Source: a virus. From it: a stretch of 42,138 nucleotides of DNA. The DNA lies in IMG/VR virus record IMGVR_UViG_3300013193_000001; one strand, written 5' to 3'. Position 1 is the first letter of the stretch. Each line of letters opens with the position of its first letter. The notes beneath the pieces are model-generated. The model ran no database searches. It saw only the letters and a program-made list of their open reading frames with translations, and had not been told where the DNA came from. The translations under genes and the position numbers were made by a program. Positions 3,831-34,197 of this stretch are shown in pieces.

Positions 3831-3980
3831 GTCGGGACAATGCCCCGGGACAACATAACCCCAGGCTTTGTCCCGATGGGGACAAAGGACAAATCCTAAA
3901 GGCATTGTCCCGTACATTGTCCCGACCGAAAACCATGTACTAGCGGCTCAAACATCACCATAAGGACAAACGGGACAAAG
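3831..3980. repeat. iteron-like cluster of GGGACAA/TTGTCCC repeats (putative replication origin)
   Basis: At least 8 copies of the 7-mer in both orientations: 3834, 3847, 3868, 3879, 3905, 3917 and 3972, plus GGACAAA at 3887 and 3964. Perfect 12-bp inverted repeat GTCGGGACAATG (3831-3842) / CATTGTCCCGAC (3915-3926). An AT-rich stretch follows (3985-4090). Confidence 0.6.
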
Positions 3981-4097
3981 TTTCTTATTAAAGAGTCTGT
4001 AGGAAATTAGAGGGGTGTTATGTACAAAACTACGGACACACTGCCTAAATCAGACACCTAAATAGGAAAACCCCCGACTTTGTTCCACCCACCATGA

Positions 4098-6973: not shown

Positions 6974-7267
6974 ATGTTGATGGATTTTGAGAATGATGGG
7001 CTGCGCTCGATGGTTGATTCGGTCGTTGAGGCGGTTGAGTCTGCGGATCATTTGGTGGAGTCTGACCAGGCTTCGGTTGATTTGGCGTTGCATTTGGCGA
7101 CGATTATTGATGAGGCGCGTGAATCGGGTGACCCGGACGCTATTTCTAAGACTTCTTTCGGGCCAATGCCTACTTTGAATAAGGTTTTGACTGGTTTGGG
7201 GCTTAATCCGGAGGGGAAGCAGAAGCTGGGCTTGAATGATGATGTCCAGGAGGATGACGAGTTTTAG
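6974..7267 (+). CDS. hypothetical acidic protein, possible terminase small subunit
   Basis: 97-aa ORF directly upstream of TerL. First gene of the G/T-third-position codon block. The assignment is positional only. Confidence 0.4.
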   Translation: MLMDFENDGLRSMVDSVVEAVESADHLVESDQASVDLALHLATIIDEARESGDPDAISKTSFGPMPTLNKVLTGLGLNPEGKQKLGLNDDVQEDDEF

Positions 7268-7280
7268 TAGGTAGGGGTGA

Positions 7281-16473: not shown

Positions 16474-19400
16474 ATGAGCGCAGCAGGCTATGCAGTTTTG
16501 CCAACAACGGTGTCGTTGTCTGGAATTAACAAAGAGCTGCAGTCGCAGCTTTTGGCACCTGCATCGAAGGCGGCGAAGAAGGCCGGCGACTCCATCGAGA
16601 AGGGCATCTCCAAGGGCACCGACAATGCAGCGGCGAAGGTCGAGAAGGCGAATTACCGCGTTAAGAAATCCTCGGAAGAGTTGGCTGATGCTGAGGCGAA
16701 GCGTAACTCTGAGGTGTTGAAGTCTCAGGCTGCGGCGAAGCAGCTGGAAGCTGCGGAGTCGAAGCTGGCGGACATGAAGAAGTCTGGCAAGGCCAGCTCG
16801 GAGCAGTTGGCTAAGGCTGAAGGTGACGTGTTCACCAAGCGCGCCAAGGTTGAGACTGCTGCGCAGAATGTTGAGAAGGCTGAGCGTGGCGTCGAAAAGG
16901 CCATGGCGGAATCGAAGCGTGCCTCCGATTCTCTCGCCACGGCGCAGAAAGACCTCGAGAATGCCACGGACGAAGCCACCGGTGCAACCCGGGAGTTTGG
17001 CGACGCCGCGGCTGACGCCGACGGCAAGGGCCAGGGGTTTGAGGTCTCTCTGGGCAAGATTGCCGCCGCCGGTGCCGTGGTAGTTGGTGCTGTCGGCGCG
17101 GCTGGTAAAGCTGCGTATGACATTGGTGCCCAGTTTGATGATGCGTATGACACGATCCGTGCGGGCACTGGTGCTAGTGGTGCTGCGTTTGAGGAGCTGC
17201 AGGATTCGATGCGCAAGGTCGCTGGCGAGTCCATTGGTGTTGGCTCCGATATGGGGGCTATTGGCTCGACGCTGGCGGATCTGAATACACGTCTTGGTTT
17301 GACTGGTGAGCCGCTTGAGAAGATGACGGCTCAGTTCATGCAGCTGCAGAACCTCGGCGTGGATGCCGACATCAACGAGGTATCGAAGGCCATGTCTGGC
17401 TTTGGTATCGAGGCGAAGGACATGCCGGCCGCGCTGGATGAGTTGTTCCAAGTGTCGCAGGCGACTGGGTTGACGATTACTGAGTTGTCGCAGTCGGCGG
17501 TTAAGGCTGGCCCCGTTTTGCGCGGGTTCGGGTTCTCGATGGCTGATTCTGCTGCGCTTGTGGGCCAGATGGATAAGGCCGGTCTGGATGCGGATAAGAC
17601 GCTGCAGTCGATGCAGCGTGCGCTGGCGGAGTTTGCGTCTGAGGGGCGCGATGCGCCGGAGGCGTTGAAAGAAACGATCGGCAGTATCGAGGAGCTTATC
17701 AATGCGGGTGATGATGCTGCAGCGATTGATATGGCGTCCAATATTTTCGGCACTCGTGGTGCCGCCCAGTTTGTGGATGCGGTGAAGACCGGCACTCTGT
17801 CTGTGGATGATTTCATGGATGCGACTGGTGCCACCTCGGACACGATTGGGGGACTGGCAGAGGAGACCGCTGATTTCTCCGAGCGGTGGGACCAGTTTAA
17901 GAACCAGGCGGTCCTGGCGTTGGAGCCTATCGCGACGAAGATTTTTGATTCTTTAGTCCCGGCTCTGGATAGAGCTCAGGGTGCTTTTGAGTTCACTTTG
18001 GGCGCGGTGAAAGGGTTTGCCGAGTGGGTGCAGAAGAGTAAGGATTGGCTGCTGCCGTTGGGGACTGGTCTGACGGTTGTTGCTGGTGGGCTGGCTGCGG
18101 TTGCTTTCCAGCAGAAGATTATTGCCGCCGGCGGTTTGATTAAGTGGTTCAAGAGCCTGTCTAGTGTCACGAAGTTGATGACCGGCGTGCAGGCGGCGTT
18201 CAACATGGTGATGGCTGCGAACCCGATTGCGCTTATCACCATTGCGATTGCCGGCCTGGTGGCTGGTCTAGTGGTGTTCTTCACCAAGACCGAGACGGGC
18301 CGCAAGATGTGGGAATCCTTCACGGAGGCTCTCGGCGCCGGCTGGGATTGGGTAGTCGAGAAGTTTCAGGCTGGCCTGGATTGGGTGCAGTCTACTTTCG
18401 GCCCGGTGTTCTCTCAGATTGGTGACATGATTTCTGGCGCGTGGGATGCGACGGTGGAAAAGGTCACTGGCGCTGTCGATAGGGTGAAGGAGATTTTTTC
18501 CGGAGCCCTTGATTTCTTGAAGACTGGTGACACGACTGACTATGCCGCTGCTCTGGGTATTAGTGAGGATTCCCCAATCTTCACGGCTCTGACGTTCTTC
18601 CGCGACCGCGTTGTGGACCTGAAGAACATCGCCGTGGCTTCTTGGGATTTCATGAAGGCCAAGTGGTCCGAGTTCACCACTGGATTCGGCCAGTTCTATC
18701 AGACGTGGATTTCTCCGGTTGTCGGCTTTATCGGTACTGCGTTCGGTGTACTGAAAGACATTGCAGTTGGCGCCTGGCAGGCCATGCAAGATAAGTGGTC
18801 GGAGTTCACCCAGGGCTTTGGTGAGTTCTACCAAGCCTGGATTGCGCCGATTGTTGACGTGATGATGACGGGCTTCCAAGTTTTGGGCTCTGTTGTGTCT
18901 GCGGCGTTTAACGGTATTTGGACGGCTATCCAGTTCGTTGGCAGCGTCATTTCTGCTGTGTGGTCTGGGGCGATTCAACCCGTCCTGTCGCTGTTCATGT
19001 CGGTGGTTCAGTCGGTGGCGTCGTTTGTCGTGCCGATTTTCACCGCTGTGATTGGCGGCGCTTTCCGCACGATGGGTTCGCTTATTTCCAACGTGTGGAA
19101 CGGTGTTATTAAGCCCGCGTGGGATTTCTTCCGTAACGCTGCCGGCCTGCTGGCAGACGTTCTCACGGGCAACTTCTCGAATATCCGTAATCGGTTCAGC
19201 TCGATGGGCCAGGCGATTTCCAACATCGTGCATGGCGTTATCAACTCGGCGATGAACTTTTTCAAGTCCATCTTCGAGAATGCGAAGCAGGTTGCCGCGT
19301 CGTTCGGTCAAGCGATTGGCCGGATGGTAGGTACGGTTCGCAACAAGATTGGCGAGATGATGGGCGTGCTCGGCCAGATTCCGGGCAAGGTCCAAGGCGT

Positions 19401-21477
19401 CTTCTCCTCGGCTGGTACGTGGCTGGTCAACGCCGGTAAGAACATCATCAGTGGCTTGATTAACGGTATTAAGTCGATGTTTGGCCAGGTTGAGAATGCT
19501 ATTGGCTCGGTCATGCCGGACAAGATTCGCGGCATGATTGGCTTCTCGGACGGCGGTGTCTATATGGTGCAGGGTGGTATTACCCGCGCCTACATTGACG
19601 GCGGTATCGACAAGCTAGAGCGCTACGCTAACGGCGGCTCGAAAGAGAAGCATACGGCGCAGATTGCTAAGGGCGGCGAGTGGCGTATCTGGGCGGAGCC
19701 GGAAACCGGCGGCGAGTCCTACATCCCACTGGCAAAGTCGAAGCGCAAACGCTCAACCCAGATTCTCGCCAAGACGGCCGACATTTTCGGACTGTCGGTT
19801 GTGGACAAGAAGGGCGAGCCGGTCAAACCAGGCCCGTCTTCCCAAGTAGCGCCGGCCAAGCCCCAGTACTTCGCCAACGGCGGTATTACGTCTAAGGACT
19901 TGCGCAGGTTTGCAGAAGGAGCCCGCGTCAAGGGCTACCAGGCGGCGCGCTCCCTAGAGGGCGCGCCATATGTGTTTGGTGGCTCGAACTGGGGTGACTG
20001 TTCCGGCACCGCGTCGGCGTTCGCCGCGCTTGCCAGCGGCATGAATCCGTTCCCTCGTAAGTTCGCCACGATGGACGAGGCCGCATGGTTGTCCTCGCAT
20101 GGTTTCCATCGCGGTCGCGGTAAGAAGGGCGACCTGCGAATCGGCTTCAAGAACGGCGGGCCAGGCGGCGGACATACCGCTTCGACACTTCCAGACGGCA
20201 CGAACGTGGAGATGGGCGGCGGTCGTGGTAATGGCCAGATTGGTGGCCGTGCCGCCGGCGCGTGGGACTCGTATTTCAACGAGTTCTTCTACAAGACCAT
20301 TAAGCCGCCGAAGCCGCCGAAGATGAACAAAATTCTCGACCAGAATGCCATCCCAGACGGCAGCACCATGACCATTGACGGCGTACCCGTCACTGTGAGT
20401 GCCGATGACACCACCACTGGTGCCACTGGCGAGAATACGGTCACGGTTGCGTTGTCCCCGGAGGACGCGGCTAAGGCCACCGCAGCGAAGGGGCTGGGCG
20501 ACCAGTCGATTCTCGACTTCGCAGTGGACGGCATCTTCGACATGCTCGGCCTGAAAGATTCCACCATCAAGAAATTGCTGACCACTAAGGGCAAAGACCT
20601 CCTACCAAACGGTGACAGCATTGTCACCACCAAGGAGGTTAAGGAGCAGCCGCGCACCAATGTGGCTGCGAAGAATGCCGAAGCGATTGAGTCCGATGCG
20701 GCAACGTCGTTGTCTCCGGCGAAGATAGCTAAGGACCCGCAGCTTGCAGCGCCCAAACCGGAGAAGAAAAAAGGCCCGACGTGGGGCCCTGATTTCTTTG
20801 CTGGTGAGATTGCTCGCAAGGCCAAGGATATGAGGTTGGATAAGCTGGCCGCGAGGATTGGTATTGCGACGGCTTTGGTGGAGTCGGGTAACCCGTTGAA
20901 GATGTGGGCGAACCGTGCTGTTCCGGAGTCGTTGAAGTACCGTCATGATGCTGTTGGTTCGGATTACGATTCCGTTGGTCTTTTCCAGCAGCGTGATAAC
21001 GGCGCGTGGGGCACGGTGAAGCAGCGCATGACCCCATACGACTCGGCGGGCATGTTCTTCGACAAGCTGAAATCCTTTGATTACAAGTCGATGGACCCGG
21101 GAGCTGCTGCGCAGAAGGTTCAGGTTTCTGCCTTTCCTGACCGCTATGGGCAGCAGATGGGTAATGCCGAGAAGCTGCTGAACAAGGTTGGTGTATTTGA
21201 CCAAGGCGGCTGGCTTAAGCCTGGTGGCATTGCCGTGAATCTGTCGAACGAGCCGGAGCCGGTGTTCAACGGCGACCAGTGGCGTGACATTAAGCGCGGC
21301 GGACTCAAGTCTGATGATGGTATGACCTTGGTGGTCAACCTTGAGGGCCAGGAGGTGCTGCGTAAGCGCGTGGACAAGGTCGAAGACGAAGTCACGATTA
21401 ATACCGAGGAGATTGGCAAGCTGCGGCGCCGTACGAGCGTGGCTGTGGCTGGCACGACTAGGGGAGGTGCGATGTAA
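16474..21477 (+). CDS. tape measure protein with embedded NlpC/P60 peptidase and SLT-like lytic transglycosylase motifs
   Basis: 1667 aa with a coiled-coil N-terminus and TM-like segments. YVFGGSNWGDCSG (NlpC/P60) at about 19945-20015. VESGNP...VGLFQQRDNGAWG (lysozyme-like ES...GLFQ) at about 20860-21010. Confidence 0.85.
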   Translation: MSAAGYAVLPTTVSLSGINKELQSQLLAPASKAAKKAGDSIEKGISKGTDNAAAKVEKANYRVKKSSEELADAEAKRNSEVLKSQAAAKQLEAAESKLADMKKSGKASSEQLAKAEGDVFTKRAKVETAAQNVEKAERGVEKAMAESKRASDSLATAQKDLENATDEATGATREFGDAAADADGKGQGFEVSLGKIAAAGAVVVGAVGAAGKAAYDIGAQFDDAYDTIRAGTGASGAAFEELQDSMRKVAGESIGVGSDMGAIGSTLADLNTRLGLTGEPLEKMTAQFMQLQNLGVDADINEVSKAMSGFGIEAKDMPAALDELFQVSQATGLTITELSQSAVKAGPVLRGFGFSMADSAALVGQMDKAGLDADKTLQSMQRALAEFASEGRDAPEALKETIGSIEELINAGDDAAAIDMASNIFGTRGAAQFVDAVKTGTLSVDDFMDATGATSDTIGGLAEETADFSERWDQFKNQAVLALEPIATKIFDSLVPALDRAQGAFEFTLGAVKGFAEWVQKSKDWLLPLGTGLTVVAGGLAAVAFQQKIIAAGGLIKWFKSLSSVTKLMTGVQAAFNMVMAANPIALITIAIAGLVAGLVVFFTKTETGRKMWESFTEALGAGWDWVVEKFQAGLDWVQSTFGPVFSQIGDMISGAWDATVEKVTGAVDRVKEIFSGALDFLKTGDTTDYAAALGISEDSPIFTALTFFRDRVVDLKNIAVASWDFMKAKWSEFTTGFGQFYQTWISPVVGFIGTAFGVLKDIAVGAWQAMQDKWSEFTQGFGEFYQAWIAPIVDVMMTGFQVLGSVVSAAFNGIWTAIQFVGSVISAVWSGAIQPVLSLFMSVVQSVASFVVPIFTAVIGGAFRTMGSLISNVWNGVIKPAWDFFRNAAGLLADVLTGNFSNIRNRFSSMGQAISNIVHGVINSAMNFFKSIFENAKQVAASFGQAIGRMVGTVRNKIGEMMGVLGQIPGKVQGVFSSAGTWLVNAGKNIISGLINGIKSMFGQVENAIGSVMPDKIRGMIGFSDGGVYMVQGGITRAYIDGGIDKLERYANGGSKEKHTAQIAKGGEWRIWAEPETGGESYIPLAKSKRKRSTQILAKTADIFGLSVVDKKGEPVKPGPSSQVAPAKPQYFANGGITSKDLRRFAEGARVKGYQAARSLEGAPYVFGGSNWGDCSGTASAFAALASGMNPFPRKFATMDEAAWLSSHGFHRGRGKKGDLRIGFKNGGPGGGHTASTLPDGTNVEMGGGRGNGQIGGRAAGAWDSYFNEFFYKTIKPPKPPKMNKILDQNAIPDGSTMTIDGVPVTVSADDTTTGATGENTVTVALSPEDAAKATAAKGLGDQSILDFAVDGIFDMLGLKDSTIKKLLTTKGKDLLPNGDSIVTTKEVKEQPRTNVAAKNAEAIESDAATSLSPAKIAKDPQLAAPKPEKKKGPTWGPDFFAGEIARKAKDMRLDKLAARIGIATALVESGNPLKMWANRAVPESLKYRHDAVGSDYDSVGLFQQRDNGAWGTVKQRMTPYDSAGMFFDKLKSFDYKSMDPGAAAQKVQVSAFPDRYGQQMGNAEKLLNKVGVFDQGGWLKPGGIAVNLSNEPEPVFNGDQWRDIKRGGLKSDDGMTLVVNLEGQEVLRKRVDKVEDEVTINTEEIGKLRRRTSVAVAGTTRGGAM

Positions 21478-22326
21478 ATGGTGAATCCTGTGCGGTTTGG
21501 GTCTGGATACTCTGGTTTCACTATGCCGGAGGAGCCTGGCTACAAAATCACCTATACTGCGCCGCATCGCCCTGGCGAGACGTTCATCTTGCACTCGATG
21601 CTTGACGCGGAAGCTGATGAGCAGCGCGTCGTGCTTAAAGAGAGCGGTTTTGGTGGCGGCTTCGGTGAGGTGGATTTTTCCTCGGCGGAGTCGGTCACTC
21701 GTTACGGTTCTCGTGTTGTTGGGTCGAAGGTTCCGGCGTTTGATGGCGAGTTGGATGTTGTCGTGCGTCCGGGGCCTGATGATTCGGTGATGGAGACATT
21801 ACGGGATTGGCGTAATGCGTGGTCCTATTTTGAGGACGGCAAGCTGAAGGTCGTGGCGCGTGATGGTGGTAACCGTGAGGCGCGTGTGCGGCTGGTGAGT
21901 TTCGCGGAGGTTGAGCTAGATCCGTCAGGGGCACGTCTTATTGAAGATAGTGTTCGGTATAGGTGCCTTGATGGGTACTGGTCTGGGGGTGTTAGGACAT
22001 ACACGGGTAACGTCACTGTGACGACTCCCGGCGACCTACCACCGAAACTTCGCCTGAAATGGGACGGCCGCTCAACCAGTTTCACCTTACCGAGTGGTCT
22101 GCGCGTCAGCTTGGCGCAAGGCCCGGGCACGAGGTGGATTGATTTGGAGCGCGGCATGCAAGGCCAAGTCACCGATGAGGGCGGCAACGTTGATACCGGA
22201 ACGTGGTCGTCGCTGCGCGGCGTGCTCGTGGGGGAGACGCTACAGCCTCACACAAAGAATGATTTTCAGTTGGGCGCGGGGCTCACCCTAGAAGTCACCC
22301 CGCGCTTTCTTAGCCCGTGGAGGTGA
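21478..22326 (+). CDS. distal tail protein (Dit-like)
   Basis: 282 aa immediately after the tape measure gene (TAAATG junction). Confidence 0.6.
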   Translation: MVNPVRFGSGYSGFTMPEEPGYKITYTAPHRPGETFILHSMLDAEADEQRVVLKESGFGGGFGEVDFSSAESVTRYGSRVVGSKVPAFDGELDVVVRPGPDDSVMETLRDWRNAWSYFEDGKLKVVARDGGNREARVRLVSFAEVELDPSGARLIEDSVRYRCLDGYWSGGVRTYTGNVTVTTPGDLPPKLRLKWDGRSTSFTLPSGLRVSLAQGPGTRWIDLERGMQGQVTDEGGNVDTGTWSSLRGVLVGETLQPHTKNDFQLGAGLTLEVTPRFLSPWR

Positions 22327-22329
22327 CAC

Positions 22330-23964
22330 ATGGTCAATTGGTCGCAGCATAAGGCTCACCGTGAAGCGGTCATGCAAGCCCACGGGCAGTACGTCGGCCT
22401 GTACGACAAGAACTGGGAGCCGGTGCTCGATATTGAGGACTGGCTAGAAGCCGAGTGGGGTGGCATTTTCGCGGACGTGGGCAACATGTCCATGACCTTG
22501 CCGGGTGAGATTTCGCCGGGCGTGGTCAACCCCGTGGTCGACTACCTTTTGCGTGACGATTTGCGCAACCTCGATAAGGGCGGCAGTCTAGACGCCCTTA
22601 TTCACGGGGCGGTGCATGTTGTCGTGGAGCGCCCTGGTCTTAAACGCCGCTGCTACCGCATTCTGGAAATCAACCCGCGTGGTGGCGACCCACAGGGCAA
22701 TCCCGCCGAGGTGGAATTGTCCGGTGTGGACTCGATGGAGCATTTGAAGCACTTGCCACTGTGGGCGGACCCCTCCAACAGGTCTAAGGTTGTGCAGTTG
22801 CAGTGGGAAGACCGCCAAGACGGCAGCGCCGAAAAAGTCTCCCGTAAACTCATCGGCCGAAACCTTATTGGGTATCAGCAGCCGAGTCTTCTAGACAGCA
22901 TGTTCTCGTGGACGGCGGGCTACACGAGCCCTCGCCAGTGGCGCGGGTTTAATCCGTCTATGCACCCGGTGATTTGCTCGCCGGTCATGTCGGGTAACCG
23001 CTCCGAGTGGTGCGTGGTGTCCGCACGCTGGGATAACGCCTGGGACTTGCTTAAAGCGACGTGGGCGGCGGCAGGCGTGCAGCCTTTCGCGTGGCTGTGG
23101 CTTCCCGGCGACCCGCAACCTTTCCCGTCTTATACGACGCTCTCGTTGCCTACGACGATTATTGATTTCGCCCCGAGGGCTACGGTGACTGGCGCGGCTG
23201 GCATCGTGGGGCAGGCTTTCCGCCAGTTGAAACGCACGATTAGCAGTGACGATTTCATTACGTCCACGACGGAGTTTGCGGACGTGGATATTAGGAATAG
23301 TGATGGGCGGCGCCCGTGGGTGGTTTACACCCTCATGGACGCCCCGGACGTAACACTGCGTAAGTCCACGGATCACCGTTGGCTGGTGGGTGGTAAGTCG
23401 CCGGACATAGTGAATAAGGCTGCGAACATTGGTATTAAGACGGCGTTTGCCGCGGCAGTGGCCGCAATCCCGTGGGTTGGTGCTCCTATTGCCGAGGTGA
23501 TTAAGGGCGGCGGTGAGCTGCTGGCGGAGTTGTCCGCTGACCGCCTGTTTGTCCTCAACGAGTACGTGGACCGAAATAGGCAGTTCCATTATGGCCGCTC
23601 GCGTTTCACGGCTATCTCCAAGACAGGTGAAGCGAACACTGTTGAGTCTTTGCAGAAGGCCTGGCAGGCGAAGCAGGAGACGGAGGGCGGCATTTCCGCC
23701 GAGTTCTCCATCGATTCGCCCGACCCGTATTTACCGGGGCGTGATTTCGACCTGGGCGACACCATCGGTATTACCGCGTGGGGTGTGGTGTGGGCAGCGT
23801 ACGTCAGTGGGTTGACGTGGACCTCGAAACCGGGGCAGGAAGTTGGCTGGCAGCTGCGTATTGGTGATTACTCCTCGCTGGCGTCGCCGGGTGAGCTCTA
23901 CCAGGCCAATAAAGAGAATGTTCGTGCTGTGATTGGCCGGCTGGCCGTGACAAAGGGAGGATAA
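22330..23964 (+). CDS. tail-associated (Tal-like) minor tail protein
   Basis: 544 aa following Dit; synteny. Confidence 0.55.
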   Translation: MVNWSQHKAHREAVMQAHGQYVGLYDKNWEPVLDIEDWLEAEWGGIFADVGNMSMTLPGEISPGVVNPVVDYLLRDDLRNLDKGGSLDALIHGAVHVVVERPGLKRRCYRILEINPRGGDPQGNPAEVELSGVDSMEHLKHLPLWADPSNRSKVVQLQWEDRQDGSAEKVSRKLIGRNLIGYQQPSLLDSMFSWTAGYTSPRQWRGFNPSMHPVICSPVMSGNRSEWCVVSARWDNAWDLLKATWAAAGVQPFAWLWLPGDPQPFPSYTTLSLPTTIIDFAPRATVTGAAGIVGQAFRQLKRTISSDDFITSTTEFADVDIRNSDGRRPWVVYTLMDAPDVTLRKSTDHRWLVGGKSPDIVNKAANIGIKTAFAAAVAAIPWVGAPIAEVIKGGGELLAELSADRLFVLNEYVDRNRQFHYGRSRFTAISKTGEANTVESLQKAWQAKQETEGGISAEFSIDSPDPYLPGRDFDLGDTIGITAWGVVWAAYVSGLTWTSKPGQEVGWQLRIGDYSSLASPGELYQANKENVRAVIGRLAVTKGG

Positions 23965-23966
23965 AC

Positions 23967-24560
23967 GTGGATTACCGCTATATTGTGCCCACGCAGGTGC
24001 CGGAGTCGGAGCACCCGTATGCGGGCCTGTTTTTGGGTGTTGTGCCGGAGGGGCGTGAGTCTGCCGTAGCACGGCATGTCTTTGATGAGTTGGGCGCTCG
24101 CTTCCAGGTGGGGGAGCCGGAGACCATCACGCTTGGGTGGGCGGTGGATTTCGAGACGAATAGTGACCGTGAGCGCGCCACGGTGGGGGAGTCGTTGGAC
24201 TTCCAGATACCAGGCGGCGATAGGCGCGGTGTGCGCATTGTTGAGGGGCATCTGCCGCCCGGTATTGAGCTACACCGCCACAACGGCACGCTGACTGGGG
24301 TGTTCGCTAAGCCGGGCCTGTACGACGTGACCCTAGCGCTTGGCCCCGCTGTGAAGCTCGACCCACTAGGCGGCACGGGCACACCGGGGGAGCAGGTCGC
24401 GTGGATACCCATTAACCAGAAACGCGCCCGCGCTGAATCCACAACACCAGCACCTAAAACCCTCGATGGTCTCACCGCCCTAGAACTATCCCAGCTTGCT
24501 GCCGAAGCGATGCGCTTGGAGCGTCTGAAAGCGATGGAGGAGCTAGACGATGGGCATTAA
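23967..24560 (+). CDS. minor tail protein
   Basis: 197 aa; synteny. Confidence 0.45.
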   Translation: MDYRYIVPTQVPESEHPYAGLFLGVVPEGRESAVARHVFDELGARFQVGEPETITLGWAVDFETNSDRERATVGESLDFQIPGGDRRGVRIVEGHLPPGIELHRHNGTLTGVFAKPGLYDVTLALGPAVKLDPLGGTGTPGEQVAWIPINQKRARAESTTPAPKTLDGLTALELSQLAAEAMRLERLKAMEELDDGH

Positions 24561-24903
24561 CCCCAACAGTGGCGATGGTGTCGAAAAGAACTACACCGTC
24601 GATGGCCGCACAGACGCAACAGACATCGTCTCCGACGCCGAGCACACCGGCCAGGAAGCGGGTAAAGCATTCGCCCATATTGCCGCGCAAGCTGATTCTG
24701 CAAACACCGGAATGGGAGAACTCTCTAAGCGGGTGGCCACTTTGGAGGGGAAGAAACCACCGGACTTGTCCAAATACGTAACCGCCGCAGCATTGAATGA
24801 CCTCCCTCTAGTTCTTTACTGGGACGGTAAATCCACCAAGCCCAAATTGCAGCCTAAGTGGCGGCTTTTCAACGGGGCGACCGGACAGATTGAGAAAGGA
24901 TAA
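24550..24903 (+). CDS. hypothetical tail protein
   Basis: 117-aa ORF overlapping the upstream stop. Confidence 0.45.
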   Translation: MGINPNSGDGVEKNYTVDGRTDATDIVSDAEHTGQEAGKAFAHIAAQADSANTGMGELSKRVATLEGKKPPDLSKYVTAAALNDLPLVLYWDGKSTKPKLQPKWRLFNGATGQIEKG

Positions 24904-24908
24904 TCATT

Positions 24909-27524
24909 ATGGCCGTTAAGCTTTCCGGCACTATTTCCGATATTACTTCCCGCCCTTTGGAGGACGTGTCCGAGGTGACGGTGAAGTCCGCGTATGCGCA
25001 GCCGTCTGCCGCTGGTATTACCGTCACCCAGCCCCAACGTGTGAATATTGACCAGTCCGGTAGTTTCACCGTGACCGCCACCGAGGGGGTGAAGGGTTGG
25101 CTTTATGTGGACGGGCCGGGTTGGTCTGACAGTATCCCATTCATCGCCGCCGCCGGAATGAGCATGATTTGGGAAGCTATCGCAAACGCCCTTGGCTTCA
25201 GTTCCAACATGCAGGACTACCTTGATGTTAAGGGTGGTATGCGTGAGATTTTGCAGGAAGCCGCCGACAAGATCGATTCGGTCATTAAGTGGCCTAAAGG
25301 CGGGCTAGAAAAGGGCACTGACCTTAATGAGGTCACGGATTCTGGTTTCTACCAAATTAATTCGTATAGTGTGGCCGCGTCGGCCCAGAATCTTCCAGAC
25401 GTTTCGGACGCTATCAACTCCGGCACCCTAGAAGTGTTTAACCTACGTGGTAAGGCCTGTGTGCAGCGTTGGACCGTGGACGGTCCCGCCACCGGCCCGA
25501 ACCTTATTTACATTCGCCACAGTGACACCGCTGGTGAGTGGTCACCGTGGGAGGAAATTGGCGCGAAATACGCATGGGTGCAGGGTGGCTTTGAAAAGGG
25601 CGCAGACCTCAACGAGGTCACCACGTCTGGATTCCATAAGGTCAACACGTACGCTATGGCCGCGTCGCTGAAGAACCTGCCTAATGAGTCGACCGCGATT
25701 AATTCCGGCGTGCTGGAAGTCTTTAACCTAAGCGGCAAAGCATGTGTTCAACGCTGGACGGTCAACGGACCAGCAACCGGCCCGAACCTGACTTACATTC
25801 GCCATAGTGACACCGCGGGCGAGTGGTCGCCGTGGGAAAAGCCTTGGGAGAGTGCAACGTGGGAGAAAACCGCCATCCCGAAAATGTCCAATATGGACGA
25901 TTACCTCACCTCCGGCATGTACCAGGTGGTCAACTACTCCACAGCATCGTCACTGGTAAATAAGCCCACGTTGCCCACAGCGATTAACCCTGCTGTCGTG
26001 GAAGTCCTAGCACTTGATACCGGCCAGGTCGTGCAACGCTGGACCACCGTAGGCGCAGTTGACCGTGATAATCCGGTCATGCAGCGCACCAGGGACAATG
26101 GCAGGAATTGGTCGGAGTGGGCACGTATCGGCAGCGGAGCGCTCGACGCTGGCGGTGGCTCCCCACTCGCGCAGGTCAACGCCGCCCGCTCCCACCAAAT
26201 GGCAGACCGTGGACTCCTGCGACTCCTGCTGCGCGGCGAAGAAGGAACCCCAGTGTGGGGCTGGACGGCACCACCCGGTGAGAAACTGGAAATCCCCACC
26301 CATGAGGACTCCGGCCAGGCGGTACACCCCTCCGTCCTGTATTTTGAGGACGGTTGGAACGGGTGGCGCTACTGGATGGTGATGACCCCGTACCCGAACT
26401 TTAATGAGGCCCACGAGGACCCCAACATCGTCGTATCCAACGATGGTGTGAAATGGCAAGTGCCAGACGGGCTTACTAACCCGATTGACGACGCTAAGGG
26501 ACGCCCCGACCCGTACAACTCGGACGCGCATTTGACTATGCGCGATAACGAAATGGTGCTCACCTGGCGCATGGTGGACCGCCCGAACAAGGGTCGTGAG
26601 TCCTTTTGGATGACGATGAGCCGCGACGGTGTGCACTGGTCGCCGAAGACAAAGATTTGGTGGCCGGAGCTTTCCGACCGGCATTCCTCCACCGTCGCAC
26701 AATCCTTACTCTGGTTGGGGGACCGGTGGCGACTGTATTTCATTTCCACGACCGTCTCGCCAAATCAGATCGTCTGGGTGGAGTCCACTAAGGCGGTTCC
26801 CACCCCGTCTGATTGGAGTAAGCCGCAAGAATGCTCGATGGACTTCACACTGCCATCTGACAGGGATTTCTGGCACTCTGAAATCCAATACCATGATGGT
26901 GAATACTGGGGCATCGTCTCTGACGCGAACCGGCGTACCACGGGTGTTAATGGCGTGATTTACCTCCTGCACTCTGCGGACGGCACTAAGTGGGAATTGT
27001 CCCCCGTACCTTTGGTTCCGCAGGCAGGCGACGGCCACGACTCCCTATACAAGACCGGATTCATCCTCTCCGGTAAAGGCGAGTCCATGACCATTGATGT
27101 GTACTACTCGGCTTATGACCGCCAGACACGCGAGTGGGGAACCTGGCGCACCACAGCAAGGTATGCGGGGCCGTTGGGTGAGAATCGCATTCGCAGCAAT
27201 GTGGATGTGGAGTGGCGTGGTGACCGGTTGGTGATTAATGGGGAGGTGGGGCCGTCACTGGCTGGCCCCAAGGGCAAGGACGGCACGAACGGTAAAGACG
27301 GTGCCATCAAATTCGAGTCCCTCACCCAAGCCCAAAAAGACGAGCTTAAAGGCGACGTATCCAAAAACCAACTGGACGCAGCCATCGCTGCGGAGAAAGC
27401 CCGAACCGTCGGCATGGTCTGGATGGTCGAGACCGAAGACCAAGCCAAGACCAAGGAATCCAGCTGTCAAAAGGGTGACTTTATTCAAGTCGCCGCTACA
27501 GGAAACATTTACAAGGTGGTGTAA
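24909..27524 (+). CDS. tail fibre / receptor-binding protein with triplicated about 85-aa domain, BNR/Asp-box (sialidase-like) beta-propeller region and collagen-like stretch
   Basis: 871 aa. Three tandem homologous segments (about 25285-26130) share GxxKGxDLNEVTxSGFxxxNxYxxAxSxxNLPxxSxAINSGxLEVFNLxGKACVQRWTVxGPATGPNLxYIRHSDTAGEWSPWE. BNR motifs SNDGVKWQ, SRDGVHWS and SADGTKWE (S-x-D-G-x-x-W). G-X-Y repeats GPSLAGPKGKDGTNGKDGA at 27241-27305. Confidence 0.8.
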   Translation: MAVKLSGTISDITSRPLEDVSEVTVKSAYAQPSAAGITVTQPQRVNIDQSGSFTVTATEGVKGWLYVDGPGWSDSIPFIAAAGMSMIWEAIANALGFSSNMQDYLDVKGGMREILQEAADKIDSVIKWPKGGLEKGTDLNEVTDSGFYQINSYSVAASAQNLPDVSDAINSGTLEVFNLRGKACVQRWTVDGPATGPNLIYIRHSDTAGEWSPWEEIGAKYAWVQGGFEKGADLNEVTTSGFHKVNTYAMAASLKNLPNESTAINSGVLEVFNLSGKACVQRWTVNGPATGPNLTYIRHSDTAGEWSPWEKPWESATWEKTAIPKMSNMDDYLTSGMYQVVNYSTASSLVNKPTLPTAINPAVVEVLALDTGQVVQRWTTVGAVDRDNPVMQRTRDNGRNWSEWARIGSGALDAGGGSPLAQVNAARSHQMADRGLLRLLLRGEEGTPVWGWTAPPGEKLEIPTHEDSGQAVHPSVLYFEDGWNGWRYWMVMTPYPNFNEAHEDPNIVVSNDGVKWQVPDGLTNPIDDAKGRPDPYNSDAHLTMRDNEMVLTWRMVDRPNKGRESFWMTMSRDGVHWSPKTKIWWPELSDRHSSTVAQSLLWLGDRWRLYFISTTVSPNQIVWVESTKAVPTPSDWSKPQECSMDFTLPSDRDFWHSEIQYHDGEYWGIVSDANRRTTGVNGVIYLLHSADGTKWELSPVPLVPQAGDGHDSLYKTGFILSGKGESMTIDVYYSAYDRQTREWGTWRTTARYAGPLGENRIRSNVDVEWRGDRLVINGEVGPSLAGPKGKDGTNGKDGAIKFESLTQAQKDELKGDVSKNQLDAAIAAEKARTVGMVWMVETEDQAKTKESSCQKGDFIQVAATGNIYKVV

Positions 27525-28228: not shown

Positions 28229-28555
28229 ATGGCCTTACAGCTAGTGAGCCGCCGCTCCTACACAATTACCGCCAATGCAGGAAAATCGGGCCAGTGGCTA
28301 GAAAACCATGTATATGGAACCCACTATCTTGAGGGGCTATATCTCATGGTGCTAGAGGGCATGGGGACTAACCCGCCCAAACTGAACATTCGCGGTGGTG
28401 AATACGGCCAATACGGCGAACAAATCCCCGCCCCAGCAACCCCCTATATCCGCCACGTCAACATCACCCCAGACTCCCAAATCATCCTCGTAGGCTCCGG
28501 CGAGGGCGACGGGAAAACCAGAGTCACATTCATCAAACTAGGAGAAGTCAAATGA
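28229..28555 (+). CDS. hypothetical protein (paralog family member 3)
   Basis: Starts MALQLVSRRSYTITANAGKSGQWLENHVYG. The protein-like part of the 27929..28555 ORF begins at this ATG; its upstream portion is R/P/G-rich out-of-frame overlap. Confidence 0.5.
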   Translation: MALQLVSRRSYTITANAGKSGQWLENHVYGTHYLEGLYLMVLEGMGTNPPKLNIRGGEYGQYGEQIPAPATPYIRHVNITPDSQIILVGSGEGDGKTRVTFIKLGEVK

Positions 28556-29190
28556 CCGTAGCTGAGCTACAAGACCAGATTAAGAAACTAGACGACACAG
28601 AATTTCAGCAGCTACTCGCGTGGGTAGTCACCCCAGAACGCGAACGCCGCCAAGCCGAGGAGGCGGTAGAGACGGCCCGTGCTGAGGATGCCCAGGAACT
28701 CTGGGAAACCCACCCCGAGCTGAAACCTGAGTTCGCTACTGAGGTAGAACCGGAGACCAGCATCGACCAGCTTGTTGCGAAGGTGGCCGCGTGGTCTAAG
28801 CCCACCAGTAGGGCCACCGCCTACCCGCCAGCAGCGCTCGTCTCTCACGAGGGGAAGCTGTGGAGAAACCGCCGTTTGGGTCAGAATGCGAAAACCCCAG
28901 GCGAGATCTTCTCCGTCTGGGAGGATGTGACGCGTGACTTCCTTCGTGATGAGCCGATTAATACGGAGGGTGAGGATGCCCCCGGGCTGATTACCGAGCC
29001 AGCTGAGCCGGACACCCCAGACGAGCCGGTGGAGCCAGCCCCCACAGTCCCGGAATGGAGGGAAGGCGAACGCATCACCAAAGGCACCACACGCCTCTAC
29101 AACGGCGACCTCTACGTCTCCCAGCGGCTTCACACCACACGCGATGACCGGAGGCCGGACACCGCGACCGACTACTGGACAAAGCTCTAA
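28552..29190 (+). CDS. hypothetical protein with two CBM5/12-like carbohydrate-binding repeats
   Basis: Two roughly 45-aa repeats, AAWSKPTSRATAYPPAALVSHEGKLWRNRR...TPGE and PEWREGERITKGTTRLYNGDLYVSQRLHTT...DYW, match the W...Y..G..V...G..Y...W chitin-binding-type pattern. Pro/Glu-rich linkers. Confidence 0.45.
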   Translation: MTVAELQDQIKKLDDTEFQQLLAWVVTPERERRQAEEAVETARAEDAQELWETHPELKPEFATEVEPETSIDQLVAKVAAWSKPTSRATAYPPAALVSHEGKLWRNRRLGQNAKTPGEIFSVWEDVTRDFLRDEPINTEGEDAPGLITEPAEPDTPDEPVEPAPTVPEWREGERITKGTTRLYNGDLYVSQRLHTTRDDRRPDTATDYWTKL

Positions 29191-29326
29191 CCACACGCCC
29201 CCCGCTGACCGCCAAGGCCACGGGGGTTAAACCGCAGGTCATATGGTAAAATGAACCCATAAGAACGGCCCCTGAAAGTGCGCCAACACTCACAAGGGCC
29301 TAACCACACACCTAGACGAGTAGGAG

Positions 29327-29974
29327 GTGGCTAGGGTGAAGTCTACCCAAGCCGAACAATGGCGACCAATCCCGGGATACGAGGGACACTACGAGGTATC
29401 AGACCACGGGCGCGTACGGAGCGTTGACCGAAAGGTTCCTCACGCCGCAAGTGGGCATTTGACCCTAAAGGGAAGAATGCTTAAACCAGCGAAAGGGAAG
29501 CGTGGGTACTTTCACGTTAACCTCACAAAAGGGCGACGAGGAAAAACTTTTACCGTTCACCGTTTAGTGGCTTTAGCTTTTATTGGCGAACCTCCATTTG
29601 CGGGCGCTGATTGCTGTCATTGGGACGATGATAAGGAAAACAATCACGTCTCAAATCTTCGGTGGGGAACTAGAAGCGACAATGTTCAGGACTCTATCCG
29701 AAACGGAACCAATGAACGCTTAAATCGAACTCACTGCGTGAATGGGCATGAGTTCAATGAGGAAAACACTCGTTACACCAAACAAGGGCGAGTATGTATC
29801 CCTTGTAGCCGAAAGCGGGGGCGTGAGTACGCGGCCAAAAATCGTAAACGAGGAAAAGGCTCCCGACTCCGTGATACATGCATCCACGGGCACAAGATGG
29901 AAGGCGACAACGTGAGCTACACAAAAACAGGACGCAGGCGCTGCAATATCTGCGCCACTAATAAGAAGAAATAG
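29327..29974 (+). CDS. free-standing NUMOD4/HNH_3 homing endonuclease
   Basis: WRPIPGYEGHYEVSDHGRVRS (NUMOD4), HRLVALAF...HWDDDKENNHVSNLRWGTRSDN (HNH_3), and C-terminal Cys/His zinc-finger pairs. AT-richer codons than the neighbours. GTG start at 29327 or 29336. Confidence 0.75.
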   Translation: MARVKSTQAEQWRPIPGYEGHYEVSDHGRVRSVDRKVPHAASGHLTLKGRMLKPAKGKRGYFHVNLTKGRRGKTFTVHRLVALAFIGEPPFAGADCCHWDDDKENNHVSNLRWGTRSDNVQDSIRNGTNERLNRTHCVNGHEFNEENTRYTKQGRVCIPCSRKRGREYAAKNRKRGKGSRLRDTCIHGHKMEGDNVSYTKTGRRRCNICATNKKK

Positions 29975-29983
29975 ATTAACTGA

Positions 29984-30008
29984 CCGCCGCCTTCGGGCGG
30001 CTTTTCTT
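29984..30008 (+). terminator. rho-independent terminator
   Basis: GCCGCC, TTCG loop, GGCGGC, then TTTTCTT. Confidence 0.7.
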
Positions 30009-30028
30009 ATATCTACAGGAGGGCAAAA

Positions 30029-30850
30029 ATGGATTGGATGAACGTAGAGCCGGACGTGTACCGGCTCATCAATAAGCATTACACACCGGGCCGTGGTGGG
30101 CAGCGGATTAAGTACATTGTGCGCCACCACAACGCCGGTATTTTGACTATTGACGGGTGCTGGCAGGTATGGCAGACACGGGAAGCTAGTGCCCACTATC
30201 AGGTGGAAAATTCAGGGCGCATCGGCCAGCTCGTCAACGACTCCGATACCGCGTGGCACGCCGCGAACCAGCTCCGCAACCAGCAGTCAATCGGCATTGA
30301 GCACGCCAACAGCGGCGGAGCCGACCAAGACTGGCCCATCTCGGACACCGTCATTAAACAGGGCGCACGCCTCGCAGCATCCCTGTGCCGCTACTACAAC
30401 CTAGGCCGTCCCGAATACGGAAAGAACATCCGCGACCACAAAGAAACCGGCCAAACTGGCTGCCCCTACCACCTCGCCTACGGCGGCAAATACCACCAAG
30501 CATGGATGAATGAAGCGCAGCGATTCTACGACGAGCTCACCCACGGCGGAGGGCAAAAGACCTCCACGGCTAAGCCGGTGAAGAAAGAAAGCAAGGGGAT
30601 AACAATGAATGCGGTTGACCAGGTTAACGCCCACACCAGGGCATTCATCACGGGGTATCTGTCTCCCCAGATTGATGCCTTGCAGGACGTATGGACGCAG
30701 CTACGAGGCCCTGGCGGTAAGGGATGGCCCCAGCTAGGTGTTAATGACAAGGGGCAGAATTTAACCCCCGTTGATGCACTTGCCGCAATCCGCCAGCAGC
30801 TCGCGCAGATTCAAGCAGACCTAGACGAATTGAAGCGGAGGAAGAAATAA
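30029..30850 (+). CDS. endolysin, N-acetylmuramoyl-L-alanine amidase (Amidase_2/PGRP) with C-terminal non-catalytic domain
   Basis: IKYIVRHHNAG...SAHYQVENSGRIGQLVNDSDTAWHAANQ...SIGIEHANSG matches the Amidase_2 signature. AGGAGGG RBS. Confidence 0.8.
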   Translation: MDWMNVEPDVYRLINKHYTPGRGGQRIKYIVRHHNAGILTIDGCWQVWQTREASAHYQVENSGRIGQLVNDSDTAWHAANQLRNQQSIGIEHANSGGADQDWPISDTVIKQGARLAASLCRYYNLGRPEYGKNIRDHKETGQTGCPYHLAYGGKYHQAWMNEAQRFYDELTHGGGQKTSTAKPVKKESKGITMNAVDQVNAHTRAFITGYLSPQIDALQDVWTQLRGPGGKGWPQLGVNDKGQNLTPVDALAAIRQQLAQIQADLDELKRRKK

Positions 30851-31215
30851 TGGCAAAGCACTACAATCAAGCGGTTCTTAACTCCGTGTCTGAACACGTG
30901 GCCGAAGCCGTCGCGGTTGAGCTACAGGAGCAGCCGTGGTGGCTGCGGTACAAGGGAACTATCATGCTGGTGTTGCAGGCCGTGGCGTGGGTTGCTGGCG
31001 TGCTGCCGGTCTACCTTGCCGACGCGCCAGAATGGACGGCACTTCTCGTTGGCGGTATCGGTTTCTTCGTCACCACCCTCACCAACCGCCTCACCGTCGA
31101 TGGTGTCACCCCAAGCATGGCACCACGCCTAGCAGACCAGGCGGAGCGCCGCGAAGCAGCAGAAACCCCCAACGCCCTGCCGGTCTACACCGGCCCCACC
31201 ACAGCAGGGGAGTAG
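30850..31215 (+). CDS. holin
   Basis: 121 aa with two predicted TM helices (IMLVLQAVAWVAGVLPVYL, ALLVGGIGFFVTTL) and a charged C-terminus. TAATG coupling to the endolysin gene. Confidence 0.65.
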   Translation: MAKHYNQAVLNSVSEHVAEAVAVELQEQPWWLRYKGTIMLVLQAVAWVAGVLPVYLADAPEWTALLVGGIGFFVTTLTNRLTVDGVTPSMAPRLADQAERREAAETPNALPVYTGPTTAGE

Positions 31216-31217
31216 TC

Positions 31218-31646
31218 GTGAGATGGGAAGATTTTAAACTACGCGCCGCCAGGTGGCTCGTATCCGACGCAGCAGGACTGTTGATTCTGGGCAGTATCTC
31301 CATCGCTCGCGGACTGTCCTACACGCCGCTGCTGGTGAACCCGGAGCGGAAGCCGACGCACTTTATGGAGAGCGTGCTTAACCCGCCGTCGTGGGCTGTG
31401 GTGTGGCTTCTCATGGGTGCGCTGTGCCTGTGCGCGGTTAAGTGGCCGAGGTTGGTGCCCGCCGCCGTGGGGGCGGTTGTGGGTCTGCATTCCATGTGGG
31501 CGTTGAGTTTCATTTTCGCCACCATCTTTGGTGACCTCCCCCGCGCTTGGGTGTCCTCCCTCGGCTATATCGGCATCGCCGCCATGACCCTCTACGCGTA
31601 TGGGCGCGGCCAAAGCAATGAGATGAAGCTGGTCGATGGGAGGTGA
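31218..31646 (+). CDS. 4-TM membrane protein (lysis-associated or second holin-like)
   Basis: GTG start with an AGGGGAG RBS; four hydrophobic segments. Confidence 0.55.
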   Translation: MRWEDFKLRAARWLVSDAAGLLILGSISIARGLSYTPLLVNPERKPTHFMESVLNPPSWAVVWLLMGALCLCAVKWPRLVPAAVGAVVGLHSMWALSFIFATIFGDLPRAWVSSLGYIGIAAMTLYAYGRGQSNEMKLVDGR

Positions 31647-32734: not shown

Positions 32735-32940
32735 CAATTCCACGACATCCACGACAGGAAACAGCCTTAAACCACCGGAAACCACCGGATAAGCTGAAAA
32801 GCAGAAACCCCCTCCCACCAGCAAAAACACCGGTAAAAGGGGGTAAGCTAGAAGTGCCCCCAGCAGGATTCGAACCCGCGACACAAACCCCATTTAACCA
32901 GCATAAACACCATACTCAAGCCCCCTTCCACGACAATTCC
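32735..32940. other. attP: tRNA 3'-end-like core flanked by integrase arm-type repeats
   Basis: The - strand reads GCGGGTTCGAATCCTGCTGGGGGCAC (T-stem/loop plus 3' acceptor of a tRNA) at 32855-32882. TCCACGACA occurs at 32739, 32748 (tandem) and 32927. Tandem AACCACCGGA lies at about 32770-32789. Inverted repeat ACCCCCT/AGGGGGT. Adjacent to the 3' end of int. Confidence 0.65.
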
Positions 32941-34016
32941 ACTGCTTTCGAAAAACTTTCATCCATCCGGCCAGCCACCACATCCAAATCCTCCTCCCAT
33001 AAATCTGCATACGTATCTAACGTCATCGCCGCCGAAGCATGGCCGAGCTGCCGTTGCACGATTTTTGGATGCGCACCCGACGAAATCATCAACCCCGCCG
33101 CCACGTGCCTTAATCCGTGCGGGGTGACACGCGGAAATTCCGGGTCCTTCTCCATGCACCGCTTCAGCGCACCATAGAACCACGTATGGTTCGACGGCAC
33201 CCGCAACGGGGACCCATCCGCCCTGCACCACACCCAAGCATCCTGAGCTTTGCCATCCATTAGCGGTACCAGCATGTCCATCACGAACCGAGGGACAGCT
33301 ACCACCCGAGTCTCATGTGTCTTCGGAGTGCCTATCTTCACCTCGTACCCCACGGTTACAGCATTCCTACGCACAGCAATCCGCCGCCGTAAAACATCCA
33401 CATCCTGAACCTTCAGGCCGGCTAACTCACCCCACCTAAGACCCACGGTGCCTAGCAGCCACACGATAGGCGCATTATCCCCACACTCGTCGGCAAATGC
33501 GGAAAGCTGCTCCCAACTGAGATACACCTTCCTGGCCTTCGCCTTCCTCGGGAGGGTTGCTCCCTTCGCTACGTTGGTTTTAACAAGCCCGTCACGTACT
33601 GCCATGTCTAGGATTTGGGATAGCATCGCGTGATTCTTTCTCACGATGGATGCGGACCGGTTTGTGTTTGATAGCCAGTGCTGTACCTCGGAGGCCCGCA
33701 CTGCCTTGATAGGCGTGTTCCCCCAGCGTGGTTTTACGTGGATTCGCCAGGTCTGCTCTGTGGTCCGCAGGGTGGATGGTTTCAAATGGGTTTGCATTTC
33801 TAGCCACCGTGCCCCTAATTCCCCGACGGTTATTTTGCCGGCGTTGGGGTCTATCCAGTCTCCGGTGCGGATGGTGGTGGCGTTTTTGTCCGCCCATGCT
33901 TGTGCTTCGTTTTTGGTGCGGAATCCTTGTTTTGTGCGGTTTTTACCGTCGGGGCTGCGGTACTGCACGCGCCACGCCCGCCCTTTTGCTGTCTTGTACG
34001 GCTTGATGGATGCCAT
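32916..34016 (-). CDS. int: tyrosine integrase
   Basis: C-terminal HGLRHVAAGLMISSGAHPKIVQRQLGHASAAMTLDTYADLW (R..H..R...Y catalytic box). N-terminal arm-binding MASIKPYKTAKGRAWRVQY. The ATG at 34016 has a GGAAGGA RBS (the ORF extends to 34229 without an RBS). Confidence 0.85.
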   Translation of the reverse strand: MASIKPYKTAKGRAWRVQYRSPDGKNRTKQGFRTKNEAQAWADKNATTIRTGDWIDPNAGKITVGELGARWLEMQTHLKPSTLRTTEQTWRIHVKPRWGNTPIKAVRASEVQHWLSNTNRSASIVRKNHAMLSQILDMAVRDGLVKTNVAKGATLPRKAKARKVYLSWEQLSAFADECGDNAPIVWLLGTVGLRWGELAGLKVQDVDVLRRRIAVRRNAVTVGYEVKIGTPKTHETRVVAVPRFVMDMLVPLMDGKAQDAWVWCRADGSPLRVPSNHTWFYGALKRCMEKDPEFPRVTPHGLRHVAAGLMISSGAHPKIVQRQLGHASAAMTLDTYADLWEEDLDVVAGRMDESFSKAVELSWKGA

Positions 34017-34148
34017 AAGATATACGTGTCCTTCCCAATTGGTGGTTGGATAATCCCCGCCCTTGGTGCTGTACTTCCACATGACAAGCGCCAAGGGCGG
34101 TCTTGTTTTATACTGCTGGTGGCCCACATCCCCCCCGTGGGCCCATAG

Positions 34149-34197
34149 GGTGGCCCCGTGTCCGAGCACAGCTCCACGGGGCCACCCCCAGTTTTTA
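34149..34197. terminator. GC-rich hairpin downstream of immunity operon
   Basis: Perfect 12-bp inverted repeat GGTGGCCCCGTG (34149-34160) / CACGGGGCCACC (34175-34186). TTTTT follows on the + strand. On the - strand it follows the stop of the SHOCT gene. Confidence 0.5.

Follow-up and report, generated by a model that had tools for sequence, protein, structure and literature searches.

The virus record IMGVR_UViG_3300013193_000001 of IMG/VR, a stretch of 42,138 nucleotides (nt) that we refer to as the window, encodes a tail fibre of 871 amino acids (aa) at positions 24909..27524 of the plus strand, on which all fibre coordinates below are given. The five-bladed beta-propeller of this fibre is a homologue of the N-acetylgalactosamine (GalNAc) deacetylase of Flavonifractor plautii, which is its sole close relative of solved structure. 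Sequence comparison and structure prediction establish the boundaries of the fibre modules, their folds, this homology and a conserved set of polar residues, H473/E503/D539/H656. We propose, with about an even chance of being right, that the fibre is a virion-borne deacetylase of an acetylated envelope glycan, one that would modify the receptor and cut no chain. Such a protein, a receptor-binding protein that bears an enzyme, is of a kind already known.

The open reading frame (ORF) begins with ATG, about 9 nt downstream of a GAAAGG-type ribosome-binding site. Because a 97% identical protein (P0001) is found on several independent metagenome contigs, the ORF is no assembly artefact. Scans of the whole protein against Pfam (E up to 1) and NCBIfam returned no match. 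The N-terminal attachment domain (aa 1-125; 24909..25283) matches the PHROG family phrog_18185, 'tail fiber protein', over aa 4-105 (E 8e-8), and is common to relatives with other heads at 35-59% identity. Together with the gene order of the syntenic tail module, this match bears out the tail-fibre assignment made in an initial annotation of the sequence. The chain would run from this baseplate-attachment domain through three knobs (aa 126-410) and the propeller (aa 453-755) to a tip module (aa 763-871). The fibre is very probably a homotrimer, since it combines pyocin-type knobs with a run of G-X-Y triplets and fibres of that type are known to be trimeric.

Propeller fold, relatives and candidate active site

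The propeller occupies 26265..27173 and corresponds to phrog_37952. For its alignment and profile we used 37 trimmed homologues of aa 440-770. Structure prediction, which the initial annotation had suggested for aa 440-780 and which we carried out with AlphaFold2 and homologues of aa 440-770, gave a propeller with five blades of four strands each (predicted local distance difference test (pLDDT) 92.5, predicted template modelling score (pTM) 0.90). A short N-terminal strand appears, from the secondary-structure pattern of the model, to complete the last blade. Three strict S-x-D-G-x-x-W Asp-boxes, SNDGVKW in blade 1 (aa 510; 26436..26456), SRDGVHW in blade 2 (aa 571; 26619..26639) and SADGTKW in blade 4 (aa 689; 26973..26993), lie just where they had been annotated, in the turns between strands 3 and 4, which is the classical position. 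When the protein was shuffled 20,000 times, no shuffle reached three matches to S.DG..W, and the mean was 0.02.

Searching the PDB with the model by Foldseek, we found the best matches in 6N1A and 6N1B (E 2e-19 to 4e-20, template modelling (TM) score 0.79, root-mean-square deviation (rmsd) 3.1), titled 'N-acetylgalactosamine deacetylase from F. plautii'. The next matches are five-bladed enzymes of the glycoside hydrolase (GH) families GH43, GH117, GH130, GH62 and GH32, at E values of about 1e-8 and TM scores of 0.52-0.63. By sequence, phmmer finds 6N1A at E 4.4e-19, and the 37-sequence profile finds it at E 2.4e-52 over profile positions 23-295 of 308; GH43 and GH32 structures follow at about 1e-6 or weaker, and the best sialidase at 2e-3. 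The model, the structural search and the profile search thus agree with the earlier suggestion of a beta-propeller from a carbohydrate-active superfamily.

Like the fibre, the F. plautii enzyme has a homologous five-bladed propeller with the same His, Glu, Asp and His positions, and the two also have the three Asp-box positions and the W-H-x-D-V-Q and Y-[KR]-S motifs in common. It is only 23% identical to the fibre propeller, and it is a secreted bacterial protein, whereas the fibre is part of a virion. Its substrate must differ as well, because blood group antigen is not expected on Corynebacterium. We take the F. plautii enzyme to carry, in addition, a CBM32 carbohydrate-binding module. A search of the literature found no link between phages and this deacetylase.

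Four polar residues are candidates for the active site. Each is invariant in 37 of 37 relatives and identical in the aligned 6N1A, and across a broader set of roughly 190-210 diverse family members, taken from a search of 1.84 billion representatives, they are kept in 90-99%: H473 (26325..26327) in 181 of 185, E503 of the E-[DN]-P motif (26415..26417) in 186 of 188, D539 of the N-S-D motif (26523..26525) in 191 of 198, and H656 of the W-H-x-[DE] motif (26874..26876) in 188 of 209. The pair Y714-[KR]715 is also nearly invariant and is the same in the aligned 6N1A. The model puts H473, D539, H656 and Y714 close to where the first strand begins in blades 1, 2, 4 and 5. The first strand of a propeller blade is the innermost and lines the central funnel, which in five-bladed propeller enzymes harbours the active site. 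By this established anatomy, and as far as the secondary-structure pattern alone can place them, the conserved residues should surround the funnel.

The literature search also found no residue-level description of the active site of the F. plautii deacetylase. We take its key residues to be E64, H97, D100 and H252 and the enzyme to be metal-dependent; with a presumed offset of 20 residues for the tag on the PDB chain, they would correspond to E503, Y536, D539 and H656 of the fibre. Family members carry mostly Tyr (117) or His (52) at the position of Tyr536, and 14 carry Phe. We infer that the propeller catalyses the deacetylation of a carbohydrate, probably with the help of a metal.

At 50% identity, the family to which the propeller belongs has 2,809 representatives up to an E value of 1e-30 and 4,498 up to 1e-10; no Pfam model matches it, and one member is characterised. 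A peptide pattern applied across bacterial and archaeal species genomes gave 257 matches, of which 247 were confirmed as loci. Some cellular members lie outside phage tail modules. Those of Corynebacterium minutissimum ATCC 23348 (locus L005, 7560-8930) and Paenibacillus cymbidii (L031, 7893-8891) adjoin glycosyltransferase, acyltransferase, ATP-grasp and heparinase II/III-like genes, while that of Candidatus Clostridium radicumherbarum (L028, 7062-8939) has three CWB2 cell-wall-binding domains fused to the propeller. Judged by these neighbours and fusions, they look like surface proteins acting on glycans.

Among deposited phages, those of Arthrobacter and Microbacterium have the propeller in 'minor tail proteins', and one Terrisporobacter and one Vibrio phage have it in hypothetical proteins, so it is not tied to mycolate-type walls. 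Ranunculus gp34, Ingrid/Loretta gp21 and Leaf/Dewdrop gp77 have the same propeller at 33-38% identity (E 1e-39 to 2e-48), and in Ranunculus gp34 it stands in the middle of the protein, as in the fibre. These actinophage minor tail proteins differ from the fibre in their other flanking modules and in their hosts; they are annotated generically, with no function assigned.

Interchangeable heads, proposed function and rival readings

The fibre slot of the tail module holds different heads in different relatives. Six relatives sharing the N-terminus and knobs (35-59% identity) carry a CE4 Polysacc_deac_1 head; on rescanning it was above the Pfam cut-off in P0017, P0022, P0032, P0036 and P0040, while for P0037 (locus L086) the match is precomputed and weak. 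P0024 (locus L088) has an SGNH Lipase_GDSL head, and the metagenomic P0010 (1142 aa) has two putative heads, a propeller at aa 303-624 and then an SGNH Lipase_GDSL domain at aa 952-1119. The CE4 and SGNH fibres occupy an identical place in the gene order of syntenic tail modules, and an integrase is encoded on the SGNH contig as well. Three unrelated folds thus share the slot: two are carbohydrate esterase/deacetylase families, and the third, the propeller, has no characterised relative but a deacetylase. Read most simply, the slot would be one for a glycan-deacetylating, receptor-modifying head.

Under the proposed mechanism, the propeller would bind a glycan of the corynebacterial envelope that carries acetyl groups and would take these groups off, and the deacetylation would let the phage pass through the surface layer or commit to it. 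In a trimer, the three propellers could project laterally from the fibre, whose axis would run on into the tip module, since both chain ends, judged solely from the secondary-structure pattern, appear to belong to the last blade. The proposed logic is that of other virion enzymes that deacetylate a glycan and leave it uncut, such as the SGNH esterase tailspike gp63.1 of coliphage G7C and the acetyl esterase tail spikes of Vi phages. The present fibre differs from these spikes in its propeller fold and, probably, in amide instead of ester chemistry, and its activity is a prediction.

Several points weigh against a deacetylase. Its function is predicted from a single characterised relative whose identity to the fibre is as low as given above, and most of the fold superfamily consists of glycoside hydrolases and phosphorylases. 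Conservation also extends to an Asp/Glu pair, which leaves room for glycosidase chemistry. The exchange of heads shows analogy of position and no identity of function, and several relatives carry heads without a recognisable family. The main caveat on the chemistry is Tyr536, which stands in the fibre at the presumed His97 position.

The glycosidase reading takes the propeller for a hydrolase of GH43, GH32, GH130 or GH183 type that depolymerises an envelope polysaccharide; the targets proposed for it are the D-arabinan of arabinogalactan or lipoarabinomannan and an outer glucan or mannan. We consider it unlikely. The fibre has no Pfam match at E up to 1, including DUF4185/GH183 and GH43, and at the Pfam gathering score for GH43 and GH32 it is again without a match, with distant relatives below the cut-off. 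The structural matches to glycoside hydrolases are about eleven orders of magnitude weaker than that to 6N1A (TM 0.52-0.63 against 0.79), and no GH183 structure appears among the top 50 Foldseek matches in the PDB. Two invariant histidines, moreover, are common to the fibre and the deacetylase, and the heads borne by syntenic relatives are of esterase or deacetylase type. An arabinanase in particular is hard to reconcile with homologous domains in phages of Arthrobacter, Microbacterium, Terrisporobacter and Vibrio, hosts that to our knowledge lack D-arabinan. For this reason, and because there is no DUF4185 match, the GH183 (DUF4185) endo-D-arabinanase (PMC10509167) was ranked low as a candidate. 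The initial annotation had pointed to a depolymerase-type protein, and this part of it is not supported, given that the only close characterised relative is a deacetylase and syntenic relatives carry CE4 or SGNH heads.

Alternatively, the propeller could be a non-catalytic, lectin-like carbohydrate-binding head derived from an enzyme fold. The depositors of 6N1A named the protein 'carbohydrate-binding protein', enzyme folds that serve only for binding are common among phage receptor-binding proteins, and the position that we take to be the catalytic His97 of the F. plautii enzyme is Tyr here. Yet all four polar residues are retained, both in the fibre and in 90-99% of the aligned family members. 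This is the pattern expected under selection for catalysis, as binding-only domains usually lose such residues, and we judge a pure binding head improbable.

A sialidase-like propeller was what the Asp-boxes had suggested in the initial annotation. Taken as a full reading, this would be a six-bladed BNR/Asp-box propeller serving as a capsule depolymerase, in the manner of the K1 phage endosialidases. Besides the three strict Asp-boxes, this reading can draw on the NCBI name 'exo-alpha-sialidase' for P0054 (Corynebacterium aurimucosum, 458 aa), on Pfam BNR_2 matches in two distant family members that lie marginally at or above the curated cut-off of 31.4 bits, P0062 with 35.1 bits and the protein of L028 with 32.6 (a third, P0026, falls short), and on the K1E tailspike, which is among the weak viral structure matches. 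The K1 endosialidase tailspikes do resemble the fibre in having an Asp-box propeller within a trimeric phage receptor-binding protein, but they have six blades and the catalytic residues of sialidases, and the K1E match is weak (TM 0.55, E 6e-7). Asp-boxes occur in other propeller families too and are not diagnostic of sialidases. The model has five blades, not six; sialidase structures reach TM scores of only 0.45-0.48 (Neu2 0.46, NanA 0.48); the best sequence match to a sialidase, at E 2e-3, compares with 2.4e-52 for the deacetylase. Neither [FYW]R[IVL]P nor R[IVL]P, the FRIP-type motif, occurs anywhere in the fibre, and the fibre has no Pfam BNR, BNR_2 or sialidase match (E up to 1). We therefore rejected the sialidase on blade count, structural scores and missing motifs, and regard it as extremely improbable. 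The name of P0054 is probably a mislabel at the level of the superfamily, because Asp-boxes mark only a propeller, while the fold and the closest characterised relative argue otherwise.

Knobs, tip module and module exchange

Between the attachment domain and the propeller lie three tandem copies of a domain with a period of 95 aa (285 nt): A (aa 126-220; 25284-25568), B (aa 221-315; 25569-25853) and C (aa 316-410; 25854-26138). Three tandem homologous modules had been annotated here, and the place and number stand, although the size of about 85 aa then given to them does not. Copies A and B are 72% identical as proteins (BLASTP E 3e-54), and copy C is 34-36% identical to both (E 1e-18 to 1e-19). 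As DNA, A and B are 69.5% identical in register and 75% over 245 nt by blastn, copy C cannot be aligned to either, and Tandem Repeats Finder reported no array over the repeats. About half of the codons that conserve their amino acid between A and B differ synonymously, which indicates that the duplication is old and under purifying selection.

Each repeat is a knob domain like those of R-type pyocin fibres. The AlphaFold2 model of knob A (pLDDT 92.8) matches R1 and R2 pyocin fibre knobs in Foldseek (TM 0.68-0.74, rmsd 2.3-3.0), with TM 0.74 and rmsd 2.3 against 6CL5 and E 1.6e-4 against 6CT8; further matches are receptor-binding baseplate proteins of two staphylococcal phages, phi812 and 80alpha. 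A profile built on 46 individual repeats of the fibre and its relatives finds the knob region of the R2 pyocin fibre (6CL6/6CT8) in the PDB at E 6e-4 over the full knob length. Single-sequence PDB searches with the knob region and with the last 101 aa gave matches at chance level only (thyX and an outer surface protein). The knobs of R-type pyocins and P2-like gpH (6CL5, 6CL6, 6CT8) have the same fold and the same tandem arrangement; pyocin and fibre knobs have a sequence motif in common in the HMMER alignment, and a P2-like gpH aligns at 29% identity over fibre aa 171-407. Unlike in pyocins and gpH, there are here three copies (1-5 in relatives), placed in mid-fibre before a putative enzyme, and the phage is a siphophage whose host is Gram-positive and contains mycolates.

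In the tip module (aa 763-871, 109 aa; 27195..27521), a G-X-Y run is followed by a conserved, apparently helical stretch (judged by eye) and then by a small end domain. Most relatives end with the propeller; the fibre and P0001-P0003 continue for about 109 residues more. The module corresponds to a stand-alone gene of 140 aa at locus L090 of a syntenic relative (7001-7423; 57% identical), directly downstream of a gene for a 668-aa fibre. It may act as an adaptor, an assembly factor or an adhesin tip. Comparison of L090 with the window thus points to a gene fusion or fission at the fibre tip. Other short homologues of the module come from small contigs and may be fragments. The possibility that the tip is a self-cleaving chaperone finds no support, as a Pfam scan gave no Peptidase_S74 match.

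The short collagen-like stretch that had been annotated near the C-terminus is confirmed, at aa 779-800 (27243..27308; 2 + 5 triplets). Specifically, GPKGKDGTNGKDGAI (aa 786-800; nt 27264-27308) is a run of five uninterrupted G-X-Y triplets, and two further triplets (GEVGPS) lie upstream of it, past a break of two residues. Runs of at least five triplets arose in 83 of 20,000 shuffles (0.4%). The Pfam Collagen model, which spans 20 triplets, has no match in the fibre, whose run is only 5 (+2) triplets long. The run is nevertheless conserved in position: at the same place the relative P0003 (71% identical) has GPRGEPGPKGDQGPKGFV, which is longer and proline-rich. Among relatives the length varies from 2 to 6 triplets, and in the stand-alone homologues of the tip module from 2 to 5. 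P0003 and P0010 have further G-X-Y runs at other module junctions, that of P0010 comprising six triplets at aa 48. We favour reading the run as a short linker that joins two modules and sets the register of the trimer, not as a substantial collagen stalk.

The initial annotation had also pointed to the diverged repeat as a recombination hotspot for host-range switching. As stated, the case is weak: the longest identical DNA run between copies is 14 nt, so unequal homologous crossing-over between the present copies is unlikely. What does speak for exchange is that relatives have between 1 and 5 knobs in front of their head domain and that homology ends at knob boundaries. In several differently headed relatives it stops at aa 311-322, the end of knob B, and P0003 is 38% identical over aa 3-309 and 71% identical over aa 223-802. 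An iterated hidden Markov model of the knob gave spurious matches within the propeller of some relatives, which we excluded from the copy counts; we took them for contamination of the profile, because the S-D-x-x-G-x-W-S-x-W motif at the C-terminal end of the knob resembles an Asp-box. From these alignments, host range in the lineage appears to change by exchange of whole modules at knob boundaries and by change in knob number.

Genomic setting, host and significance

The window, the genome of a temperate siphophage or a prophage, encodes a primase/helicase (large plus-strand ORFs within 1-6000), a large terminase (7281-8918), portal and protease genes, a major head protein (12120-13061), a tape measure of 1,667 aa (16474-21477), an endolysin of 273 aa (30029-30850) and, on the minus strand, an integrase (32916-34229); no tRNA genes were found in it. 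Between the tape measure and the fibre, the plus strand of 21478..24903 holds baseplate genes for a Dit-like protein of 282 aa, a Sipho_Gp37-like protein of 544 aa and proteins of 197 and 117 aa, assigned to minor tail families of PHROG. The fibre thus comes after the tape measure, Dit, Sipho_Gp37 and two small genes, an order that recurs exactly in related metagenomic contigs, and in the window the lysis genes come next. A megablast search of the fibre gene against 50,697 phage records gave no match. The first 25 kb of the window match a deposited phage over 4% of their length only, and that sole match of the window is to the primase gene (78%) of CL31, a Corynebacterium glutamicum phage. The closest cellular homologues of the fibre are in C. 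minutissimum, C. hiratae, C. aurimucosum and C. guaraldiae. Because of the CL31 match and these homologues, the host is very probably a Corynebacterium.

The region 3' of the fibre shows several further features. The stretch 28553-30665 is without a counterpart in the 89% identical relative L001 and replaces part of the lysis region there; the L001 endolysin is a 455-aa M23 + GH25 protein, whereas that of the window, at 273 aa, is of a different type. A gene for an HNH homing-type endonuclease (29327-29974; phrog_1492, E 9e-75) lies between the tail genes and the endolysin. The 212-aa ORF at 28552-29190 belongs to phrog_18593, of unknown function, and has in its C-terminal half two similar aromatic-rich stretches, HEGKLWRNRRLG...SVWEDV and YNGDLYVSQRLH...DYWTKL. 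As these resemble the small carbohydrate-binding motifs that end actinophage minor tail proteins, the product may be a second adhesin. Just 3' of the endolysin, a 236-aa ORF (30936-31646) matches a PHROG labelled 'minor tail protein' (phrog_4026, E 2e-45); this is an odd site for a tail gene, and the product may be a mislabelled lysis or membrane protein. We also considered whether a 233-aa ORF 3' of the fibre in L001 is a fusion of the 131-aa and 97-aa ORFs of the window, and rejected it, as only its first 116 aa are homologous and the remainder is of low complexity. At the other end of the window, positions 1-6000 have a strongly negative GC skew (-0.25 to -0.28) and a positive AT skew despite their large plus-strand ORFs, opposite to the block of structural genes (6-24 kb).

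A broader proposal, which we put forward as tentative and somewhat doubtful, is that phages of this lineage must deacetylate an envelope glycan to infect, using CE4, SGNH or propeller heads swapped into one scaffold, and that the propeller would be the first phage receptor-modifying enzyme of its family. If the domain were inactive or purely binding, the protein would be an ordinary mosaic actinophage tail fibre. The proposal would give a biological context to a very large propeller family, whose sole characterised member is of biotechnological interest for blood-group conversion and whose public annotation reads 'minor tail protein' or, misleadingly, 'exo-alpha-sialidase'.

The receptors and entry mechanisms of phages of Corynebacteriales are poorly known, and corynephage Cog depends on arabinogalactan modification genes (PMC9671496). 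If the proposal is true, the substrate of the propeller would reveal an unrecognised acetylated surface glycan of skin corynebacteria, for which a GalNAc or galactosamine-type decoration of arabinogalactan, of the kind implicated in infection by Cog (PMC9671496), is a candidate. A head that is interchangeable among three deacetylase/esterase folds offers a lead in the same direction, namely that envelope acetyl groups may gate the infection of skin corynebacteria.

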